A stretch of 64,000 nt of DNA, taken from positions 2,853 to 66,852 of the IMG/VR virus record IMGVR_UViG_3300009177_000036. The stretch is one strand, 5' to 3'. A program made the translations under genes and the position numbers. This stretch comes from a virus. Under the pieces are notes generated by a model. The model worked only from the letters and a program-made list of their open reading frames with translations, ran no database searches and was not told the DNA's origin. The first letter of the stretch is position 1; each line of letters starts with the position of its first letter. Of this stretch, positions 6,501 to 64,000 are shown piece after piece.

Positions 6501-8148
6501 CCTCAGCGGCCTGTTGCGTGAGCGCCTGTACAGGATTGACCTCTTCTTCTAACTTAGCAGATACACTGCCAGGAAATGGGCCGAGGCGTTGGTTGATGGC
6601 ATCGAGGTCCTGGGCCGCCAGGGATTCAGCCTGACCCTTCACCGCCCGATTAAGTAGAACTTCCTGGGGAGTAGCTACACCTATGGTGGCATCGGGGGCC
6701 TGGGCCTGGAGGGCTTGTGATGTTTCCTCTGCTTTGCCAGGGGAAGACAGAGCTTCCGTCACAACATTTCCCTCAGCATCCTTGGCCTGGACCACTTGGG
6801 GAGCACCGGAGGTGCTAGCTTCGACCTTGGATTCGGGGAACCCGAGGATATTGGCCATGGTCTTGTCGGACAAGCTCTGGGCATTGGTGAAAGTCTCGGC
6901 CTTGGTGGGGTCGCTCGTAATAAGTGTACCCTCAGGGCGTTTCACAACTTCCAGTTCAGGAGGGAGGTCCTTGGGGATCGCAGACTCATTGCCCCGGGCT
7001 ACGAAGACCGAATCCTTGGTGCTTTTGGGGTCGAGGAGGGCCTGGACCTGGGCGGCGATGTCGGCTTTTGGTTCGGGGGTTGAGCCGGACTCGGGGCCGA
7101 AAAGACCTTCGAGACTATCGGACATGACGTCGCCACGCTCTTGCAGATTTATCTGCTCGCGCTCGTTCTGTGGCCCCTTCGGAGCGTCGCGGATGGTGCG
7201 GATTTCATCGAGGCCCGGGCGTTTCCCGAATTCTAGGCCTGCGGCAATTTGGACCTGGGGGACGGTCAGGCCTGCGTCGAGCTTCTCCTTAATGAAGTCC
7301 GCCATTTTGGGAACTGCGCCCGGCTCGGTCGGGGGGCCCTCGAAACCTTCATTAAGTTTGGCCGTTAGGTCCGGGGCTGCTTCGACAAGGGGTGTGGGCG
7401 CTGGGGCGCTGGCCTCCGGCTCTAGAGCAGGGGCTGCAGGGGCAGGGGCAGGGGCTTTGGGACCGAAGCCTAGTTTCTCGGCGATGTAGCGACGCAGGCC
7501 GCCCAGAAGTTCAGGGGTCATGTGGAGACCCCCGGCCACAAGCCCGTTGACTGCGGCGTCTTCTATGGTTTGGGCCAGATCGGGGCCTTCCCCCACACCC
7601 CTTTCTTTTCGGGCCTCGGCAATGAGGGGGTCGACCACTGCAGTGTAGGCTGCGTTTAGCCCGCCGAACTTCAGGGCCTGGGCCAGCATCGAGCCGCTGC
7701 CTGAAGGCAGGAGCATCTGTTCCGGGGCCGCACCCACCGAGCCGATGACGTTGCCCGCGACGGAGGTCAAGGCTTCGAGGGGATGGGTCAGACCTCCGGG
7801 CTGGAAGTTGGCTTTCTCGGACTCAAGCTTTTGTTGTTCGGTGGCGGCTTTTGCAGTCCGGGCTGCTATGGCTTCTGGGCTTTGGTCGGCCAGAGGATGT
7901 TGGGCAGCATAAGCGGCGGCCGCCCCTTCGGCCCCCGGGGCCACGCCCATCATGGGAATCCGGCCCTGAATGTAGTCTTGGATTGCCTGCTCGCCCAGAT
8001 GGCCCCCGAAATAGGAGGACAGGATGTCGGTCTTGAAGCGGTGGGCTAAGCTTGGGTTTGTGGGTTCCGGGGCATTGAGTTGGTCCAGGACACTGGGCCC
8101 CGACTCATCGGAGGCGTTGAGTTGATCGAGCAAGCTCGGATCGGCCAT
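3574..8148 (-). CDS. Large internal virion / DNA ejection protein
   Basis: ~1520 aa, helical, last in the tail module; start MADPS overlaps the upstream stop. Confidence 0.7.
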   Translation of the reverse strand: MADPSLLDQLNASDESGPSVLDQLNAPEPTNPSLAHRFKTDILSSYFGGHLGEQAIQDYIQGRIPMMGVAPGAEGAAAAYAAQHPLADQSPEAIAARTAKAATEQQKLESEKANFQPGGLTHPLEALTSVAGNVIGSVGAAPEQMLLPSGSGSMLAQALKFGGLNAAYTAVVDPLIAEARKERGVGEGPDLAQTIEDAAVNGLVAGGLHMTPELLGGLRRYIAEKLGFGPKAPAPAPAAPALEPEASAPAPTPLVEAAPDLTAKLNEGFEGPPTEPGAVPKMADFIKEKLDAGLTVPQVQIAAGLEFGKRPGLDEIRTIRDAPKGPQNEREQINLQERGDVMSDSLEGLFGPESGSTPEPKADIAAQVQALLDPKSTKDSVFVARGNESAIPKDLPPELEVVKRPEGTLITSDPTKAETFTNAQSLSDKTMANILGFPESKVEASTSGAPQVVQAKDAEGNVVTEALSSPGKAEETSQALQAQAPDATIGVATPQEVLLNRAVKGQAESLAAQDLDAINQRLGPFPGSVSAKLEEEVNPVQALTQQAAEAAPPKGVPSAETPVEPGAPPPQVQAVRNPQVQEQLASGEDAPPEVWQRQPLSAQLENLSENPPPPNIAGPDSITNPNSIPRDVNLFESKVLTPSYLGKLFPAAARVYDALVRKSQYEGSLLRDFSNRFKDFTALGSKDQQAVTRMLYEIQADRVNNPGAKAIPDKDGNITYNGTTLTPEQSKGYQSAVDMTQRALQEMKTVQLTKMGLDPKLDSTTIAADPTFQGMGKNQQKQALTFLSSWEAMSQGHYFPVMRFGKTWEIVGKDISGDTVYRQQLDHVPTVAEQKKFIDAARAQHGFGPEVTFTTDKMAPFRDPEGVGVPELMSLDRMVQALGNVSHNEWNNIFEQALNKLRGEGPGSHFLQRKMIPGFDADDGLKVGANYILGMSRLLSNMLHADNIHAEVNSVDLRQPKLKATLDTHVTHALNPVEQLSGIKSLLALRDIGFSLPVAYKHTLNVPIRTFPLFMSYGVNPLKIGAHMAQGLADAVAFQMGRMDRTNPLYKILEEGSAKGFLGSRWTDDLYAQSNTGIKATPLQRTYAGALNAAGVFVREAEKLGRMSTYLAGRSMFSDPAVQKAVLDAAKKDPVLQQLIQSRGFTPDMFAEHMARESFFDYGRANTPIIMQGAVPGLIGMFNKVQTNYLGSMYTLAVLSARGNKQAAANLGMMLLAGGLINGVWGAVPSGHLFVELGDKIADLAGVPHADIERHMQEMLAHAGMSHEWIDRLNRGEMNDLAGFDLHTRSGLELPYTSMLSAVLSLGGAKPSDMLGASGSGLQSIVQGIFATLSGNPNWRSMVLQSIAPISAQRAYQWLWDIPQNGLKSQSGRTILTPEEIKNGSPEWGLKPITTAQRIAGAFGFTPSGVAEYQNRIAQVAKESARLDTVVQPFIGRGIEAVNGVASPDIAVRTQSQKDLQAVLKEFKQYNKTAAPEDRIMPNMLIKGIISGIMQEKNPQEAKIKGVPLVGKEKAMQILKGLNW

Positions 8149-58703: not shown

Positions 58704-59165
58704 ATGTCAAATGATTTGGACTTTCTGAACGAAGAGACGTCGAGTGTTGTTGAGCCGACCTTTCTGAAGGACAAGCAGCGCTATCTGTTTGTGACCACTG
58801 CGTACAAGGGCGAGCGTCTCCCGGGTGAGAAGCGTACCCCGAAGGTCACACTGACGCTGCGGGCCCTGGAGCCGATCGATGAGGACGGTGACTTTGAAAC
58901 GGCAGTAAAGGAGACGGAGGCGGTTTTCTTCGTAACTCCGAAGTCTGAGTTCCGCCTGTTGCGCGTCCTGCGTGACGTGTATGGCCAGCCCACGGATGCC
59001 GATGGTTTCCTGTGGAAGGACGGCCTCGAAGGTGCGGTCGGCCAGGAAGTGGTCGGGACGGTGTTCCACGAGGAACGCAAGGGCAAGGACGGTCAGGGCA
59101 CGGGAAAGTATAACATTACCGTGTCTAACCTGAGCAGCCCGGAGGCTCTGCGCGCCGCCGCTTAA
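58704..59165 (+). CDS. ssDNA-binding protein-like (DUF669-type OB fold)
   Basis: Position after the Sak4-like gene, beta-rich, own promoter and terminator. Confidence 0.6.
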   Translation: MSNDLDFLNEETSSVVEPTFLKDKQRYLFVTTAYKGERLPGEKRTPKVTLTLRALEPIDEDGDFETAVKETEAVFFVTPKSEFRLLRVLRDVYGQPTDADGFLWKDGLEGAVGQEVVGTVFHEERKGKDGQGTGKYNITVSNLSSPEALRAAA

Positions 59166-59170
59166 TAGGA

Positions 59171-59212
59171 TAGGGGCAGGGCCCGCGCCTGTAAGTCCCC
59201 TACCTTCTTTTT
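59171..59212 (+). terminator. Rho-independent terminator
   Basis: TAGGGG...CCCCTA stem plus CTTCTTTTT. Confidence 0.55.
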
Positions 59213-59439
59213 GGGAGTATCCCACATGGCACGATCCCCGGACTACATCAAGGGATTCGAGGCAGCCCGTTCGCGGGCTCTAATTATTGCTGACGAACAG
59301 GAACGTAGGTGCCGCGCGGCCCTCGATCCCGCAGGGGAGGTGGCTATCCGGTGGATTTTCGCCGAGCTTATCCGGATGCGCCCGGCCCCTGAAATTGAAC
59401 CCCGCGAAACATAAATAGCGGCCCGCGCCGCATTCAAGG

Positions 59440-59718
59440 ATGAAATCTATGCGAGTTGAGCAGATTATTGATAAGTTGACCCCGGGGGCGAAGTTCCTCT
59501 ATCACACGGGGGATTTGGCCCGGGACCGGCTGAAGGACCCTGAGTTGGATAATTTAGCGACGTTTATTTATGGACGGGCCGCGCCCAAGCATTTTGTGAT
59601 TGCCGCCGACGAAGATACGGGCTATGTTCAGATGGGTCAGGGTAAGGGCCAGTGCATTCAGGAGCGGCGCGGCGACCACGACTATCAGTATTTTTACATC
59701 GAGAACAGCCATGGATGA
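59440..59718 (+). CDS. Hypothetical protein
   Basis: YH.GDLARDR pattern. Confidence 0.6.
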   Translation: MKSMRVEQIIDKLTPGAKFLYHTGDLARDRLKDPELDNLATFIYGRAAPKHFVIAADEDTGYVQMGQGKGQCIQERRGDHDYQYFYIENSHG

Positions 59719-60076
59719 TAAAGAATTGAACAAACGCCTGGAGCAGTTTAATCTGCAGACCCGGCAGTTGGTTGAAGCCTTTGGGGCGATCGCCCGGGCA
59801 ACATTCGAGATGGCTAATCAGGGTGAGGACCGGGCCGGAAATTTGACGGTGTGGAACTATTCCTACATCGCGGCCTTGGAGCATCAGATGATTGTGATGC
59901 TTAGACAGCTTCATGCTAATTTGCCGGAGAAAGAGTATCTGGAAACCCGGGAGTTTACTCTGGGCAACATTCGGTCCTTTACGCCCCCGGATGGGGATTC
60001 CGGTGAGGTGGTGGCCAACATTAAGGGCGACGGAACTCTGGAGCCAGTCCGGGACCCCGACGATACAGTCCATTGA
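59711..60076 (+). CDS. Hypothetical protein
   Basis: Coupled ORF starting MDDKEL. Confidence 0.55.
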   Translation: MDDKELNKRLEQFNLQTRQLVEAFGAIARATFEMANQGEDRAGNLTVWNYSYIAALEHQMIVMLRQLHANLPEKEYLETREFTLGNIRSFTPPDGDSGEVVANIKGDGTLEPVRDPDDTVH

Positions 60077-60087
60077 GGGGAATATGA

Positions 60088-60405
60088 ATGAGTGTCCTTT
60101 ATTTGCATGTGTCTTATGAGCAGTACAAGAAGGTCGAGGAGCAGATGCGGGCTTTCAAGGAAACCCAGCACAAGACAACCGGGGGCTTTTACCATAAGAG
60201 CATTCGGATGCCGATCGACGATGGGCTAATTCTAGAGATTCATGGGCCGCTCGTCGGGGGCTACGGTCACCGGGACGAAGAGATTAATGCCCCCTTGAGG
60301 ACTTTAGGGCCTTCGATTTATTTCAATCCACTTACTGACCCGCTGCCTCGAAATGAGCCCAGTGAGTGGGAGCCTCCGTCTGATGATGATCTGAAGGGGT
60401 TTTAG
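60088..60405 (+). CDS. Hypothetical protein
   Basis: GAGG RBS. Confidence 0.55.
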   Translation: MSVLYLHVSYEQYKKVEEQMRAFKETQHKTTGGFYHKSIRMPIDDGLILEIHGPLVGGYGHRDEEINAPLRTLGPSIYFNPLTDPLPRNEPSEWEPPSDDDLKGF

Positions 60406-60423
60406 CCGATCGGGGGTTGGTAA

Positions 60424-61530
60424 GTGGCGCTGCCGTTTGTCCCGCTGATTGATAGGGTCCCGGCGAAGTGGCCCCAAGGGGCACCAGCCCCGACTCGGGT
60501 GGCCATTGTAGGAGATTGTCCTGATGAGGCCGGGGAAATCTCACGGACCCCATTCGCGGGCCACCCCGGTTATCTGCTGCGCAAACAGCTAGCGGCCCAG
60601 GGCCTGGACCTCGACGAATGTTTGGTGACCAATGTCTTCTCATATCGGCCCACAAAGGGCGAGATCAAGCGGTTTTTCATTAAGAAGATGGAGTGGAACC
60701 GGCTCAAGAAAGCTGGGGATTTGGAGTCTTCGACCTATCCCGCATTCGGGACCAATGGTTTCGTTCATCCCAAGCTGGAGCCCGAGCTTCAGAGACTGAA
60801 AGAGGAACTTGGCGAAGCCAAGCCGCATCTTGTTATTGCCCTCGGGGCGGCGGCGCTTTGGGCACTCACAGGGCAGGATAAAATTACTGTCCACCGGGGA
60901 TCGACAACTCTTAGCACCTTGGTGCCAGGACTAAAGGTGTTGCCTACTTACCATCCGGCGGGCATAAATAGCCAGTGGGAATTGCTGCCGACATTCGTGG
61001 CGGACCTGGGTAAGGCTCAAAAAGAGGCTGAGTTTCCGGAGATTAGACGTCAGTCCAGGATCATACTGATCGAGCCCACGCTCCGGGAGGTGGAGGAATT
61101 TTTCCAAGAGCACATTCTCCCGGCACCACTGGTCTGTTTGGACATTGAGACGAAGCGGCGGCAGATTGACTGTATCTCGCTGGGGCCGAATGAGAATCTG
61201 ACGATGGTGATTCCCCTTTGGGATACACGGAAGCCGGGCTGGAGCTACTGGACCCGGGAAGAAGAGCTTGAGATTTGGCGCATGTTGAAGTGGGCCCTGA
61301 TGCTCCCCAACGCCAAGCTCGGACAGAATGTGGCGTATGATCTGAGTTATCTGCTGGCCTACGGCATTCCCACGGGCGGGGTGTGTCAAGACACGATGTT
61401 GATGTCTCATTCGATGGACCCTGAGGGGCCCAAATCCCTGGGACATATGGGCTCCATCTACTGTTCGGAGACGGCGTGGAAAGCCCTGGCTCACTTTAAA
61501 TCTGAGAAAGCTTTGGAGTCCGAGACATGA
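60424..61530 (+). CDS. Uracil-DNA glycosylase (family 4-like) fused to a partial 3'-5' exonuclease; N-part of a split polymerase
   Basis: VGDCP..E...PF.G..G, TNV, PTYHPA; LDIET (ExoI), GQNVAYD (ExoII), DTM. Confidence 0.85.
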   Translation: MALPFVPLIDRVPAKWPQGAPAPTRVAIVGDCPDEAGEISRTPFAGHPGYLLRKQLAAQGLDLDECLVTNVFSYRPTKGEIKRFFIKKMEWNRLKKAGDLESSTYPAFGTNGFVHPKLEPELQRLKEELGEAKPHLVIALGAAALWALTGQDKITVHRGSTTLSTLVPGLKVLPTYHPAGINSQWELLPTFVADLGKAQKEAEFPEIRRQSRIILIEPTLREVEEFFQEHILPAPLVCLDIETKRRQIDCISLGPNENLTMVIPLWDTRKPGWSYWTREEELEIWRMLKWALMLPNAKLGQNVAYDLSYLLAYGIPTGGVCQDTMLMSHSMDPEGPKSLGHMGSIYCSETAWKALAHFKSEKALESET

Positions 61531-62042
61531 CCGAACGTAAGGAAGATGAAACCTTCTCAACTGCCGGCGATCGCCGAATTCCGTATCATGAGGAGATGGG
61601 GAGGATGGTTCCACGTCCGGGAAGTTTCACAGAAATGAGTTTCAAAGATATGGATAAAGCCCTCACAGCTATTGCAAATACAGCCCCGGCCCCTAATGAT
61701 CCGGGGTATGCTCCGCTGAGGGCCTTTCTTGATGAGGCATTCCTTCGGGCGTCCCAGGGGAAGGGTAAAGAGCGCCATGCCAATGGGTTCCCTTTCCTTG
61801 AGCAGCCCCTGTTCATGATCATGAGGGGACTAGGGCCTGGGGGCGTTAATGGCGCGATCTTCCAGGCCATCAAGAAGCTCATGGAGATCAAGAATCTTAA
61901 GCCTGAGAGTCAGGTGGCCGAGCTAATGGACGTGGTCGTTTACGCTGCTGCGGCGGCCATCTACCTCAGAGAAATTTATGATGCATCCACAAATTCACAC
62001 CCCTCTAAGGATGCAGGTACTTGGAAAGAGACCAACGGCTAA
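61527..62042 (+). CDS. All-alpha NTP pyrophosphatase-like protein
   Basis: GKG.ERH, QAIKKL.E, ELMDVVVY. Confidence 0.5.
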   Translation: MTERKEDETFSTAGDRRIPYHEEMGRMVPRPGSFTEMSFKDMDKALTAIANTAPAPNDPGYAPLRAFLDEAFLRASQGKGKERHANGFPFLEQPLFMIMRGLGPGGVNGAIFQAIKKLMEIKNLKPESQVAELMDVVVYAAAAAIYLREIYDASTNSHPSKDAGTWKETNG

Positions 62043-62326
62043 GAGTTACCGGGGACGGCAACACACCCCTTGACAGGTTTACGCTTTTGTGGTTGTCTGT
62101 GTTGCACAGGGCGCTAGACGATGCCTGCGGGCAAACTCTAGTTAACCCCACGGATAGCACACGACAGCAGCAGCACATGGAGTTTCAGCTTCGGGCCCGT
62201 GAATGGTTCCGGACTGCCGGGCAGGACTTCCGGGATCTTTGTGCCCTTGTAGATATTCCTTGGGAAACAGTGAGGGCTGCGGCCCTCAAAGCTATGGAGA
62301 AATCAGATGACGAGCATAGTCGATAA
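62021..62326 (+). CDS. Conserved phage protein
   Basis: LW.SVL.RA..DA...AREWF...DF..LC. Confidence 0.6.
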   Translation: MERDQRLRVTGDGNTPLDRFTLLWLSVLHRALDDACGQTLVNPTDSTRQQQHMEFQLRAREWFRTAGQDFRDLCALVDIPWETVRAAALKAMEKSDDEHSR

Positions 62327-62744
62327 AATCAATACTCATATCTTTGATGTTGTCGACGCCCTCTATGATATTGGAGGGAACAAGCCCCTTCTGGCCGAGG
62401 TCGCGCGGGCCGGGGTGTGGGCCGGGTCCCGGTTGAAAATGGGCAACAGCATACAACTTCTTTATGGTGGCGCGCCCCAGGTTATTACACAGGGTGACGT
62501 TGTTATTTACATTGACCGGACCCCTTCCGCCGCTATGATTAAGTTTGCTCGTGAGGGTGGGATGATTGTCTTCTTAATTACGGACAATCCGGTGGAGACT
62601 TCTGCCGATGTGACCTTCTATCTTGATCTGGGCGACTCTCAGGAGACGGGCCTGTTTAATGAAGTATCGGGGGTCGTGACGAACATTGTCCTTGAGATTG
62701 CCCTTGATGTCAGGGATGCTCCGGCCTCGGAGGGTCAGCAATAA
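62307..62744 (+). CDS. Degenerate SIS-domain (GmhA/DiaA-like) protein
   Basis: GDVVIYI, FAREGGMIVFLIT, ADV, QE resemble the SIS fold. Confidence 0.45.
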   Translation: MTSIVDKINTHIFDVVDALYDIGGNKPLLAEVARAGVWAGSRLKMGNSIQLLYGGAPQVITQGDVVIYIDRTPSAAMIKFAREGGMIVFLITDNPVETSADVTFYLDLGDSQETGLFNEVSGVVTNIVLEIALDVRDAPASEGQQ

Positions 62745-62754
62745 GGCCGCGCCG

Positions 62755-64000
62755 ATGATCAAGATTGACACGTCCTCTCTTGTCTTGGCGGACTGGGACC
62801 CGCAGCAGATTCACTATATCTATAATGGGCTTGATGTCCTGATGACCCATGAGATTTGGGGCAAGCAGCAGGCCCGGGCCGACGCGGACCCCTACACGCG
62901 GGACATCTATAACTTTGAGCAGGCCTTGCTGGAACCGGCGATCCTTATGGGGCGGCACGGAGTCCGGGTGGACATGAAGGCCCGGGAACGGGGCATTCGC
63001 AACTATACCCAGAAGATATATGATGTGGGGGGCCTAGCTCGGGACCGGGAGGGGAAGTGGCGCATTATTAATGAGGACGCCCCGCTGCAGCGAGTGGCCC
63101 AGGCAGTATGGGATCGGACCCTTAATCCCAATAGCTCGCCCCAGCTTGCTGACTTCTTCTATGATAAGCTGAAGATGGTCCCGATTTTCACAAGAAAAAA
63201 GGGTATAACTAAGGGGCTGTCCACGGACCGGGAGGCCCTGGAGCGGATGATGGAGCATGCCCCTCGGGCGGTGCCCCCTGCGGCTTTGGTGCTGGCGACC
63301 CGGGACTATATGGGCATCCTGGAGATGTTAGAGAGGGGTGTGGACTCGGACGGGCGGATGCGCTACAGTCTGAATGTGGCGGGGACCGAAACTTTCCGCC
63401 TTAGCTCTAACAAGGACCCTTTCCGTATGGGCGGCAATATTCAAAATGTCCCCATGGACCTTAGGCACATATTCATTCCGGATGAGGGCTGCGTTGCCTT
63501 CGGGATCGATAAGTCCCAGGCAGAGAGCAGGGGTGTGGCCTATCTTAGTGGGGATGAGAATTATATTGCAGCGGTGGAGGGGCCCGATTTGCATACTGAC
63601 GTGGCGAAGATGGTGTGGCCCGCGATTGTGTTCGATCGGGCAACGGCTGACGCCATTATGTATCGGACTTATACGTATAGGTTCATGAGTAAGAAGGGCA
63701 GCCACGCTACGAATTATCTTGTGACGCCTTATACGATGGCTCGCGCTCTGAAGATCGAGAAGAAGGTTGCGGAGGATTTTCAGGATAGCTATTTTGAGGC
63801 CTTCCCTGGAGTCAAGAAGTGGCAAGAGGATACGATCAAGGAACTGATGCTTACCAATGAACTAGTCACCCCCTTAGGGCAGCGGCGGCACTTCTGGGGC
63901 CGGGCCTCAGACGGATCAACGCAGCGGGAGGCTATTGCCTTCAAGCCTCAGGCCATGATCTCGGCGGACATTAATGTGGGTATTCTAGACGTGTGGGATA
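62755..64000 (+). CDS. polA: Family A DNA polymerase (truncated by the window edge)
   Basis: My translation: YNGLD (ExoIII), NPNSSPQL, TETFRLSS, NIQN, DKSQAESR (motif A), DLH, RFMSKKGSHATNY (motif B), TPLGQRR. Confidence 0.92.
   Translation, partial: MIKIDTSSLVLADWDPQQIHYIYNGLDVLMTHEIWGKQQARADADPYTRDIYNFEQALLEPAILMGRHGVRVDMKARERGIRNYTQKIYDVGGLARDREGKWRIINEDAPLQRVAQAVWDRTLNPNSSPQLADFFYDKLKMVPIFTRKKGITKGLSTDREALERMMEHAPRAVPPAALVLATRDYMGILEMLERGVDSDGRMRYSLNVAGTETFRLSSNKDPFRMGGNIQNVPMDLRHIFIPDEGCVAFGIDKSQAESRGVAYLSGDENYIAAVEGPDLHTDVAKMVWPAIVFDRATADAIMYRTYTYRFMSKKGSHATNYLVTPYTMARALKIEKKVAEDFQDSYFEAFPGVKKWQEDTIKELMLTNELVTPLGQRRHFWGRASDGSTQREAIAFKPQAMISADINVGILDVWD

Follow-up and report, generated by a model that had tools for sequence, protein, structure and literature searches.

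A phage family-A DNA polymerase probably built from two polypeptides that share one proofreading site

Fission of the S-SBP1 type, in which T7-like cyanophages encode exonuclease and polymerase separately, has been presented as the first among family-A DNA polymerases (PolAs) (Czernecki et al. 2023, PMC10201439). PolAs that carry a uracil-DNA glycosylase (UDG)-like domain are described in that paper only as fusions, and the passages on UDG-fused PolAs in a second source (PMC13697223) do not mention split forms. Split polymerases are also noted in passing for OM43 phages (PMC10580990) and uncultured cyanophages (10.1101/325100). Free-standing homing endonucleases have split Aeh1 nrdA (nrdA/mobE) and the family-B gp43 gene of T4-like phages, and the pieces are reported to reassemble in active form (PMC2677866). 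The split B-family polymerase of PhiKZ, DNAP-N and DNAP-C, was shown experimentally to form a stable 1:1 complex (PMC13648687). Here we describe a soil phage whose PolA is encoded as two separate proteins, with the proofreading domain interrupted mid-way and three unrelated genes intervening. The locus lies at the end of a 64,000-nucleotide stretch of DNA (the window) that covers positions 2,853 to 66,852 of IMG/VR virus record IMGVR_UViG_3300009177_000036. Sequence comparison makes it probable that this phage's only family-A polymerase consists of two polypeptides, the DEDDy exonuclease site being completed in trans.

The open reading frame (ORF) listing of the window contains five plus-strand ORFs at this locus: an N-half (A), three small frames (g1, g2 and g3) and a C-half (B). 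An earlier note on this DNA had placed UDG, ExoI (DIET) and ExoII (NVAYD) in 60424-61530, ExoIII about 22 residues into a separate polymerase ORF at 62755, and three ORFs in the ~1.2 kb between them. All three readings hold: A matches the UDG family PF03167 and the phage polymerase family phrog_17 and has both motifs, B carries Y23-NGL-D27, and g1-g3 fill the 1,224 nt from the stop of A to the ATG of B. The DEDDy exonuclease motif set of PolAs, which consists of DxE (ExoI), Nx2-3[FY]D (ExoII) and Yx3D (ExoIII) on a DnaQ-like fold, is thus complete but spread over two ORFs, with ExoI and ExoII in A and ExoIII in B. Matches to the phrog_17 'DNA polymerase' profile run on from A (profile positions 480-785) directly into B (positions 802-1138), so that the two ORFs lie end to end along a single profile. 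The record contains neither a second PolA nor a further PolA-type exonuclease.

Conservation within the halves was read from two alignments. An exhaustive search over 1.84 billion representatives yielded 5,471 matches at E <= 1e-3 (724 at E <= 1e-30), and the best 150 of these, which are representatives of clusters at 50% identity, are without exception stand-alone N-halves of 254-396 amino acids (aa). The C-halves are represented by 65 complete sequences of the split clade. The features of the two halves are as follows.

60424 to 61530, plus strand: N-half A, 368 aa, with a UDG-like domain and an exonuclease core that carries ExoI and ExoII.
60427 to 61035, plus strand: family-4 UDG-like domain, residues ~2-204, from fold and profile matches.
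61048 to 61515, plus strand: incomplete DEDDy exonuclease domain, residues ~209-364, corresponding to Klenow 324-483.
61141 to 61149, plus strand: ExoI, D240-I-E242 (DIET), with D and E invariant in 150 of 150 N-halves.
61327 to 61341, plus strand: ExoII, N302-V-A-Y305-D306 (NVAYD), from the motif columns of the 150 N-halves.
61477 to 61530, plus strand: conserved W352-K353, the 15-residue C-terminal tail (ALAHFKSEKALESET) and the stop, from the alignment of 150 and the model.
62755 to 64000, plus strand: C-half B, with a 22-residue head, the ExoIII helix and then the family-A polymerase domain, continuing past the window end.
62821 to 62835, plus strand: ExoIII, Y23-N-G-L-D27, with Y, N and D invariant in 65 of 65 C-halves.

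The N-half begins with a domain of the UDG superfamily. Pfam UDG (PF03167) matches residues 18-187 of A with E = 2.2e-17 (63.9 bits against a cut-off of 24.3), and a profile of the N-halves matches family-4 UDGs in the PDB with E = 1.7e-29. Residues 2-204 of the N-half model superpose on the family-4 UDG 1l9g (VIA-align; Z 19.2, rmsd 2.5, 166 aligned), and the model fits UdgX 6ail nearly as well (VIA-align; Z 19.0). The score of A against TIGR00758 is 47 bits, under the cut-off of 125, so we speak of a UDG-superfamily domain and not of a certified family-4 enzyme. Motif A of family-4 UDGs is GE[AG]PG. The window departs from this pattern with G30-D-C-P-D34, while F44, N70 and H177 are retained; the second position is E in 119 and D in 20 of the 150 N-halves, and the fused relatives have GEAPGE. 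Because motif A is degenerate (GDCPD), the domain may be non-catalytic.

The remainder of A corresponds to the first part of a PolA 3'-5' exonuclease. Model residues 209-364 align with Klenow 324-483 (1d9d_A; VIA-align, Z 12.8, rmsd 3.2, 152 aligned), and the N-half profile matches Klenow with E = 1.6e-7 over chain residues 18-126, which are residues 341-449. In addition to the ExoI pair, D306 of ExoII and D323 of a DTM motif are present in 150 of 150 N-halves, N302 in 147, and Y305 in 135 with F in another 14. An AlphaFold model of the N-half alone (pLDDT 91.1, pTM 0.87) is confident as far as residue ~350; disorder is confined to the last ~15 residues, with the pLDDT dropping in the tail first to 64 and then to 42. 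Structure alignment of the N-half with the phiLo polymerase 9qhs gave Z 14.0 with an rmsd of 15.4, a value which suggests that the domains are placed differently relative to each other in the two.

The C-half could be followed beyond the window, whose end (contig positions 2853-66852) coincides with that of the contig, inside B. Because the first 181 contig bases repeat the contig end at 95% identity (contig 1-181 against window 63819-63999), the record wraps, being circular or terminally redundant, although its classification is linear with 74% completeness. A cluster of G-to-A differences in the start copy of the repeat creates an artefactual stop. Read across the wrap, B is 492 aa long and ends at contig position 415, with polymerase motif C (QVHDA) on the wrapped part. 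The automatic ORF call starts B at TTG 62686, whereas the ATG at 62755 (MIKIDT) fits the family N-terminus, M-[KR]-I-I-x-T, and with the start placed there ExoIII is Y23-NGL-D27.

The polymerase part of B belongs to family A, with the carboxylates of motifs A and C and the lysine of motif B all present. Pfam DNA_pol_A (PF00476) matches with E = 9.5e-32 (110.8 bits against a cut-off of 34.3), and a profile of 37 C-halves matches Taq, Bst and Klenow with E values of about 1e-40 to 1e-45. The motif residues D220, D229, K301 and H414-D415 (numbered as in locus L006) are invariant in 65 of 65 C-halves. In motif B (window 63505-63725) a histidine, likewise invariant in 65 of 65, occupies the position of Taq F667 and Klenow F762; the C-half consensus KklgHgtnY aligns there with Taq KTINFGVLY.

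Profile and model positions show that the cut interrupts the exonuclease domain in the loop that immediately precedes the ExoIII helix. The N-half stops near Klenow residue 483, and the profile of 37 C-halves enters Klenow at chain residue 169 (residue 492), just before Y497. In the model of a fused relative (L013; pLDDT 93.4, pTM 0.92), which matches the Klenow, Bst and Taq large fragments with TM by target of 0.74-0.82, ExoI lies on strand 202-208 and ExoII on helix 267-278. The counterpart of the conserved WK pair, W317-K318, sits in loop 312-324, and Y328 and D332 of ExoIII open helix 325-349. For the window and for Caulobacter phage Kuura alike, the break maps to residues ~340/354 of the fused protein of Microcystis phage Mel-JY34. 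The spacing from WK to YN is ~8-17 residues in fused forms and ~14 + 22 residues in split forms.

The same cut is found in many other phages. Kuura, a plaque-forming isolate, is the best relative in the phage collection (35% identity) and has an identical cut: Kuura_029 (369 aa, annotated as hypothetical) is followed by two small genes and by Kuura_026, 'DNA polymerase'. Fused relatives are the proteins of Mel-JY34 (810 aa) and MW202489 (779 aa). A scan of viral contigs seeded by a single protein found no relative, whereas alignment-seeded scans did. The first alignment-seeded scan of IMG/VR yielded 80 loci, comprising 64 fused genes, 13 scored as split and 3 cut off by the end of the contig. 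Nine of the split calls are at this site (L006-L012, L058 and L078), three are at a second site (L042, L056 and L084), and one is a break in the N-part (L046). In the second scan, seeded with split-type sequences, at least 600 stretches matched and at least 588 encode relatives. The best 80 of these gave 79 new loci, 76 of them split, 3 incomplete and none fused, which brings the IMG/VR loci with this cut to 85. The closest fused proteins, from a length-restricted search, are at most 36% identical and score at most 167 bits, while split forms reach 311 bits. The earlier note had proposed such a survey of fused and split homologues, and its outcome indicates that the cut is an old, clade-wide trait of the family and not a peculiarity of this phage.

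Both halves appear to be maintained together. The ExoIII region reads YN..D in 81 of the 85 split loci and YC.LD in the other 4, and the invariance of the Exo residues in N-halves and in C-halves points to selection on both sides of the cut. The halves are always adjacent on the genome across the relatives. Pairwise identities of N-halves and C-halves from the same loci correlate with r = 0.91 (r = 0.83 for pairs below 60% identity); none of 999 permutations in a Mantel test reached 0.91, and the mean identities are 52% for N-halves and 51% for C-halves. In a tree of the N-part, the window groups with Kuura and L006-L012 in a single clade (SH-aLRT 99), and L058 and L078 fall among fused sequences as splits of their own, so that at least three state changes are needed.

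Such recurrence bears on the view that the split is damage or artefact, arising either from gene decay in a defective phage or from a chimeric assembly, with 1.2 kb of foreign DNA placed in an intact gene. The record is indeed a metagenome contig, with the linear and incomplete classification and the artefactual stop described above. However, a plaque-forming isolate and 85 other loci have the same cut, and the five ORFs of the window are all intact and tightly packed. A Logan contig of 23,987 nt (run X1), which may derive from the source sample, covers 59500-63999 unbroken. Short contigs from three other runs (X2-X4) of three other studies, each covering only small shares of the stretch, cross the A/g1 junction (61443-61669), the g1/g2 overlap (61973-62123) and the g3/B junction (62607-62951) without a difference. 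We regard an artefactual or degenerate origin as extremely improbable.

The new termini created by the cut are themselves conserved. N-halves typically end in ...WK.MR....T-I-K-[RK]-[DE]-[ED], and C-halves begin with M-[KR]-I-I-x-T. WK is kept in 149 of 150 N-halves and is followed by a tail of 3-17 aa (median 14). Among 73 distinct tails, codons vary synonymously at T (4 codons), I (3) and D (2), which argues for constraint on the protein sequence of the tail. K and R show a preference for the codons AAG and AGG, and a Shine-Dalgarno-like word occurs in 52 of the 73 tails; together these suggest that the tail has an added role as the ribosome-binding site of the next gene.

Conserved ends of this kind also bear on whether the halves might be rejoined into one chain, by RNA splicing of a group I or II intron that contains the three ORFs, by protein trans-splicing with a split intein, or by translational read-through or frameshifting. 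Introns and inteins are known in phage polymerase genes, with SPO1 and T7-like examples discussed in PMC2677866, an intron was raised as a possibility for another split phage polymerase in PMC10580990, and HNH endonuclease genes occur around the polymerase gene. In the window itself, 1.2 kb and three frames exclude read-through. The two halves are delimited by conserved stop and ATG codons of their own. Of 81 related loci, 17 have the two genes abutting or overlapping without anything in between, and only 3 of these 17 pairs are in frame against ~6 expected by chance. An Rfam scan of 59000-64000 gave no match at E <= 1, although a divergent intron could escape it. Fractured genes joined by split inteins have been described (PMC2677866). 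We considered the window as one of these and rejected it: the 15 residues after WK and the 22 before ExoIII are far too short for intein halves, and the two halves match only the UDG and DNA_pol_A families in Pfam and NCBIfam. Rejoining by any of these routes seems highly unlikely.

We favor instead a polymerase that works as two chains. Subunit 1 (60424-61530) contributes a UDG-like domain of family 4 together with the exonuclease's beta-sheet core, in which the ExoI and ExoII carboxylates sit. Subunit 2 (62755 on) begins with the ExoIII helix, bearing its Tyr and Asp, and continues through a linking helix into the whole polymerase domain. Both would be translated from one tightly packed gene block. 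The chains would most likely assemble non-covalently, the ExoIII helix docking on the exonuclease core to complete the DEDDy site and so rebuilding the UDG-exonuclease-polymerase architecture of the fused relatives. The earlier note had proposed a two-chain polymerase with its proofreading site formed in trans, and the conserved cut, the invariant residues, the co-divergence of the halves and the loop position all support that proposal by comparison. Its further suggestion, that the split might allow fidelity to be tuned, finds no support here. The genes form one tightly packed block, and 10 of the 17 adjoining pairs overlap by 4 or 1 nt (6 and 4 pairs, respectively), an arrangement that points to coupled, equimolar synthesis rather than independent regulation.

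Several observations weigh against the two-chain interpretation or parts of it. Whereas the anatomy, the conservation and the place of the cut are shown directly, the physical association of the chains and the activity of the exonuclease are inferred, and from comparison only. The Pfam exonuclease model PF01612 does not match the N-half even at E <= 1, which leaves phrog_17, the profile match to Klenow (E = 1.6e-7) and the fold comparison as the basis of the exonuclease assignment. The C-terminal tail of A (...FKSEKALESET) differs from the T-I-K-R-D-E end of its clade. The tree has 84 rows and long branches and was made by a 'quick' method, and its deep order is not firm. Moreover, g2 and g3 may not both be real genes, because they have no homologues, and the gap of the window contains no endonuclease match that would speak for an origin by homing endonuclease.

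The silence of PF01612, like the degenerate UDG motif A, would also suit a phage that has no working exonuclease, in which the C-half is a proofreading-free polymerase and the N-half serves, for example, as a UDG-like DNA-binding or processivity factor. There are precedents in PMC10201439, where CCPol is a PolA that retains three exonuclease helices only and some PolAs are said to work with a truncated exonuclease domain. Yet a dead site would hardly explain invariant ExoI and ExoII residues in all 150 N-halves and ExoIII in all 65 C-halves, nor would one expect it to keep a full exonuclease core that is confidently folded in the model, or halves that always occur together and diverge together. 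We consider the loss of proofreading unlikely.

Between the halves of this polymerase lie three small frames:

61527 to 62042, plus strand: g1, 171 aa, a cargo gene of an uncharacterised phage protein family.
62021 to 62326, plus strand: g2, 101 aa, a cargo ORF, orphan.
62307 to 62744, plus strand: g3, 145 aa, a cargo ORF, possibly with a SIS-like fold.

Packing is tight throughout. The TGA stop of A shares bases with the ATG of g1 (ACATGA), g1 overlaps g2 and g2 overlaps g3, and 10 nt separate g3 from B. Scans for promoters and terminators gave counts not above those in shuffled sequences (6 vs 4.7 ± 2.1; 11 vs 7.8 ± 3.4). One promoter-like site (62512-62539, TTGACC-16-TATGAT, 10/12 matches) lies inside g3, upstream of the C-half.

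The three frames have few relatives. For g1 these are an unnamed phage protein family (phrog_13898, E = 7.6e-26; phrog_8209, E = 1.2e-17) and six proteins outside its own cluster at E <= 1e-3. A search with g2 found its own cluster alone, and its status as a gene rests on ORF length and the overlapping fit between g1 and g3. The nearest folds to a low-confidence Atlas model of g3 (pLDDT 0.57) are SIS-domain clusters, with TM of 0.56-0.63 by query. Neither g2 nor g3 has a sequence-family match in Pfam, PHROGs or NCBIfam; none of the three frames matches Pfam (even at E <= 10) or NCBIfam, and PDB sequence searches gave nothing usable. Neither blastp nor clustering revealed homology to the gap genes of Kuura or of the 85 other loci, and g1-g3 and the two gap genes of Kuura are all singletons in the clustering.

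Related loci differ widely in what separates the halves. From the stop of the N-half to the start of the C-half, the distance over 81 loci has a median of 344 nt and ranges from -56 to 1,360 nt, which puts the 1,224 nt of the window near the top. Seventeen loci have at most 30 nt, 3 have 31-150, 42 have 151-600 and 19 have more than 600 nt. The gaps contain 159 ORFs of at least 40 aa in 119 clusters, 106 of them singletons, some small ORFs surely being spurious. Among 81 non-nested gap ORFs of at least 60 aa, the commonest cargo is phrog_355 'nucleoside 2-deoxyribosyltransferase' (18 matches), and Pfam identifies DUF7768 (12), DUF1937 (7), Nuc_deoxyrib_tr (2) and HNH_3 (2). A few of these ORFs are MazG-like pyrophosphatases or HNH endonucleases, and no single HNH family is matched by more than three, the gap ORF of L058 included. 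The deoxyribosyltransferase-like cargo (phrog_355; DUF7768, DUF1937) occurs in gaps of L086-L164, L010 and L011, and its location beside a UDG-like domain may point to a connection with the modification of nucleotides or DNA. In L149 (7012-9102) the C-half frame is open for 468 nt upstream, back to the N-half stop, and this C-half may have an N-terminal extension of ~156 residues instead of a separate cargo gene.

One pair of relatives shows how such a gap can arise. L058 is split and its near-identical sister L076 is fused; their DNA homology ends after the WK codons and resumes at LWEYN, so that 68 bp of L076 correspond to ~497 bp in L058. Encoded in this segment are a new tail with its stop, an HNH-family protein of 131 aa (phrog_3377, E = 6.7e-31) and, for the C-half, a new start and head. 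Read as sequence, the pair shows a recent insertion of an HNH-family gene exactly at this site. Relatives of this HNH gene lie upstream of the polymerase gene in L073, inside it in L042 and downstream of it in L078 and L082. The L058 cassette has no nucleotide match to any of the compared loci that would derive it from the split clade. L078 is split without cargo, its junction reading GGAGG-TAA-CCC-ATG, and its sister L082 is fused.

The earlier note had seen no intein or homing-endonuclease motifs in the gap, and for the window this is correct: no HNH, GIY-YIG, LAGLIDADG or intein match was found in g1-g3 (Pfam, PHROGs, NCBIfam). Beyond the gap the statement does not carry, as HNH genes are present in gaps of relatives and one directly follows the polymerase gene of this phage (contig 400-831, phrog_3593, E = 3.6e-14), overlapping its stop. 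The product of that gene has a C-terminal helix-turn-helix.

A second recurrent break site lies in the polymerase domain, just after a ...NLQNI... motif, in L042 (7687-8622), L056 (~7647-7655) and L084 (7632-8464). The insert of L042 at this site is an HNH-family gene (phrog_374, E = 9.8e-44), and the gene of L084 looks MazG-like by eye. L028 counts among the fused loci, although its ORF stops at this second site (7656).

On this evidence, the loop before the ExoIII helix has been opened at least three separate times in the family, in one recent case with insertion of an HNH-family gene. In the old clade the opened site has probably become a slot that takes up varied cargo, g1-g3 being cargo and not parts of the enzyme. 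By analogy with L058, and with the HNH genes in a few other gaps, the old split may likewise owe its origin to a homing endonuclease.

It is possible, though on balance doubtful, that the loop is a dedicated cargo slot within an essential gene: opened by a cassette, held by docking termini, open to gene exchange and home to a nucleotide- or DNA-modification module. A homing-endonuclease cassette would then most likely bring its own tail, stop, start and head, and the split allele would be kept. The T-I-K-R-D-E end of subunit 1 and the M-K-I-I-x-T start of subunit 2 might act as docking motifs that hold the exonuclease site together. Accessory genes gathered between the halves would be co-expressed with the replicase and hard to delete, and deoxyribosyltransferase-like and MazG-like genes beside a UDG-like domain could build a modification module around the polymerase.

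The stand-alone UDG-exonuclease is a 'hypothetical protein' in Kuura and is unnamed or called 'uracil-DNA glycosylase' in metagenomes. Naming it as the first subunit of a replicase would correct the annotation of a large group of phages, with at least 150 clusters at 50% identity and at least 588 further IMG/VR stretches. If the two-chain reading is true, the enzyme would be a naturally occurring PolA in which two polypeptides, cut within a domain, jointly form the proofreading site, and a system in which to examine the role of the ExoIII helix in exonuclease assembly and the partitioning of primers between polymerase and exonuclease sites. A loop opened at least three times, with one before-and-after pair, would also be an example of mobile endonuclease genes turning one gene into two, the scar of the opened loop becoming a place for gene gain.

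Among the described systems, the S-SBP1 type is like the window in having a family-A polymerase encoded by two adjacent genes, for which non-covalent re-association is proposed, without intron or intein. As described, its cut separates the exonuclease domain from the polymerase domain, goes back to a 1-nt frameshift and left overlapping genes without cargo or UDG. In the window, by contrast, ExoIII belongs to the second gene, and the cut lies between ExoII and ExoIII of a UDG-PolA whose relatives usually have cargo. In LUZ24 (Bruynoghevirus, NC_010325; PMC3890496), too, the PolA is divided, and many unrelated genes, one of them for an endonuclease, separate its parts, which have long carried the annotation 'DNA polymerase exonuclease subunit / part II'. 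In its genome (15146-20305) three pieces are recognizable, gp25 being followed by eight genes, gp34, endonuclease VII (gp35) and gp36. With YDLEGD, HNILDYD and YCLQD the complete set of Exo motifs is present in gp25 (169 aa), so that LUZ24 is cut at a domain border; it differs from the window in having no UDG domain, and it shows no detectable sequence relation to either half (E > 0.01).

The fused UDG-PolAs (N4-like cluster 17; SPO1, SP-15, YerA41 and phiLo; PDB 9qhs and 9qlh) have the same order of UDG-like, exonuclease and polymerase domains but are described as single chains of ~800-1,250 residues (PMC10201439, PMC13697223), whereas the window has two ORFs 1,224 nt apart. The Aeh1 nrdA/mobE type resembles L058 in that an endonuclease gene breaks an essential gene of replication or nucleotide metabolism (PMC2677866). 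The window differs from this type and from gp43 in that its gap holds no endonuclease, the gene is a PolA, and the split is old and clade-wide rather than sporadic. PhiKZ, as described, belongs to family B, is cut elsewhere and has an extra clamp-like subunit, and is a functional analogy and not a relative. The Kuura paper, where it touches on the enzyme, mentions merely 'a DNA polymerase' (PMC9959647), and in the literature searched, subscription journals and supplements aside, we found no description of a UDG-PolA split in this way or of any PolA cut between ExoII and ExoIII. Split PolAs are already known, but with cuts between domains; a within-domain, clade-wide split of a UDG-PolA with a slot for cargo is new.

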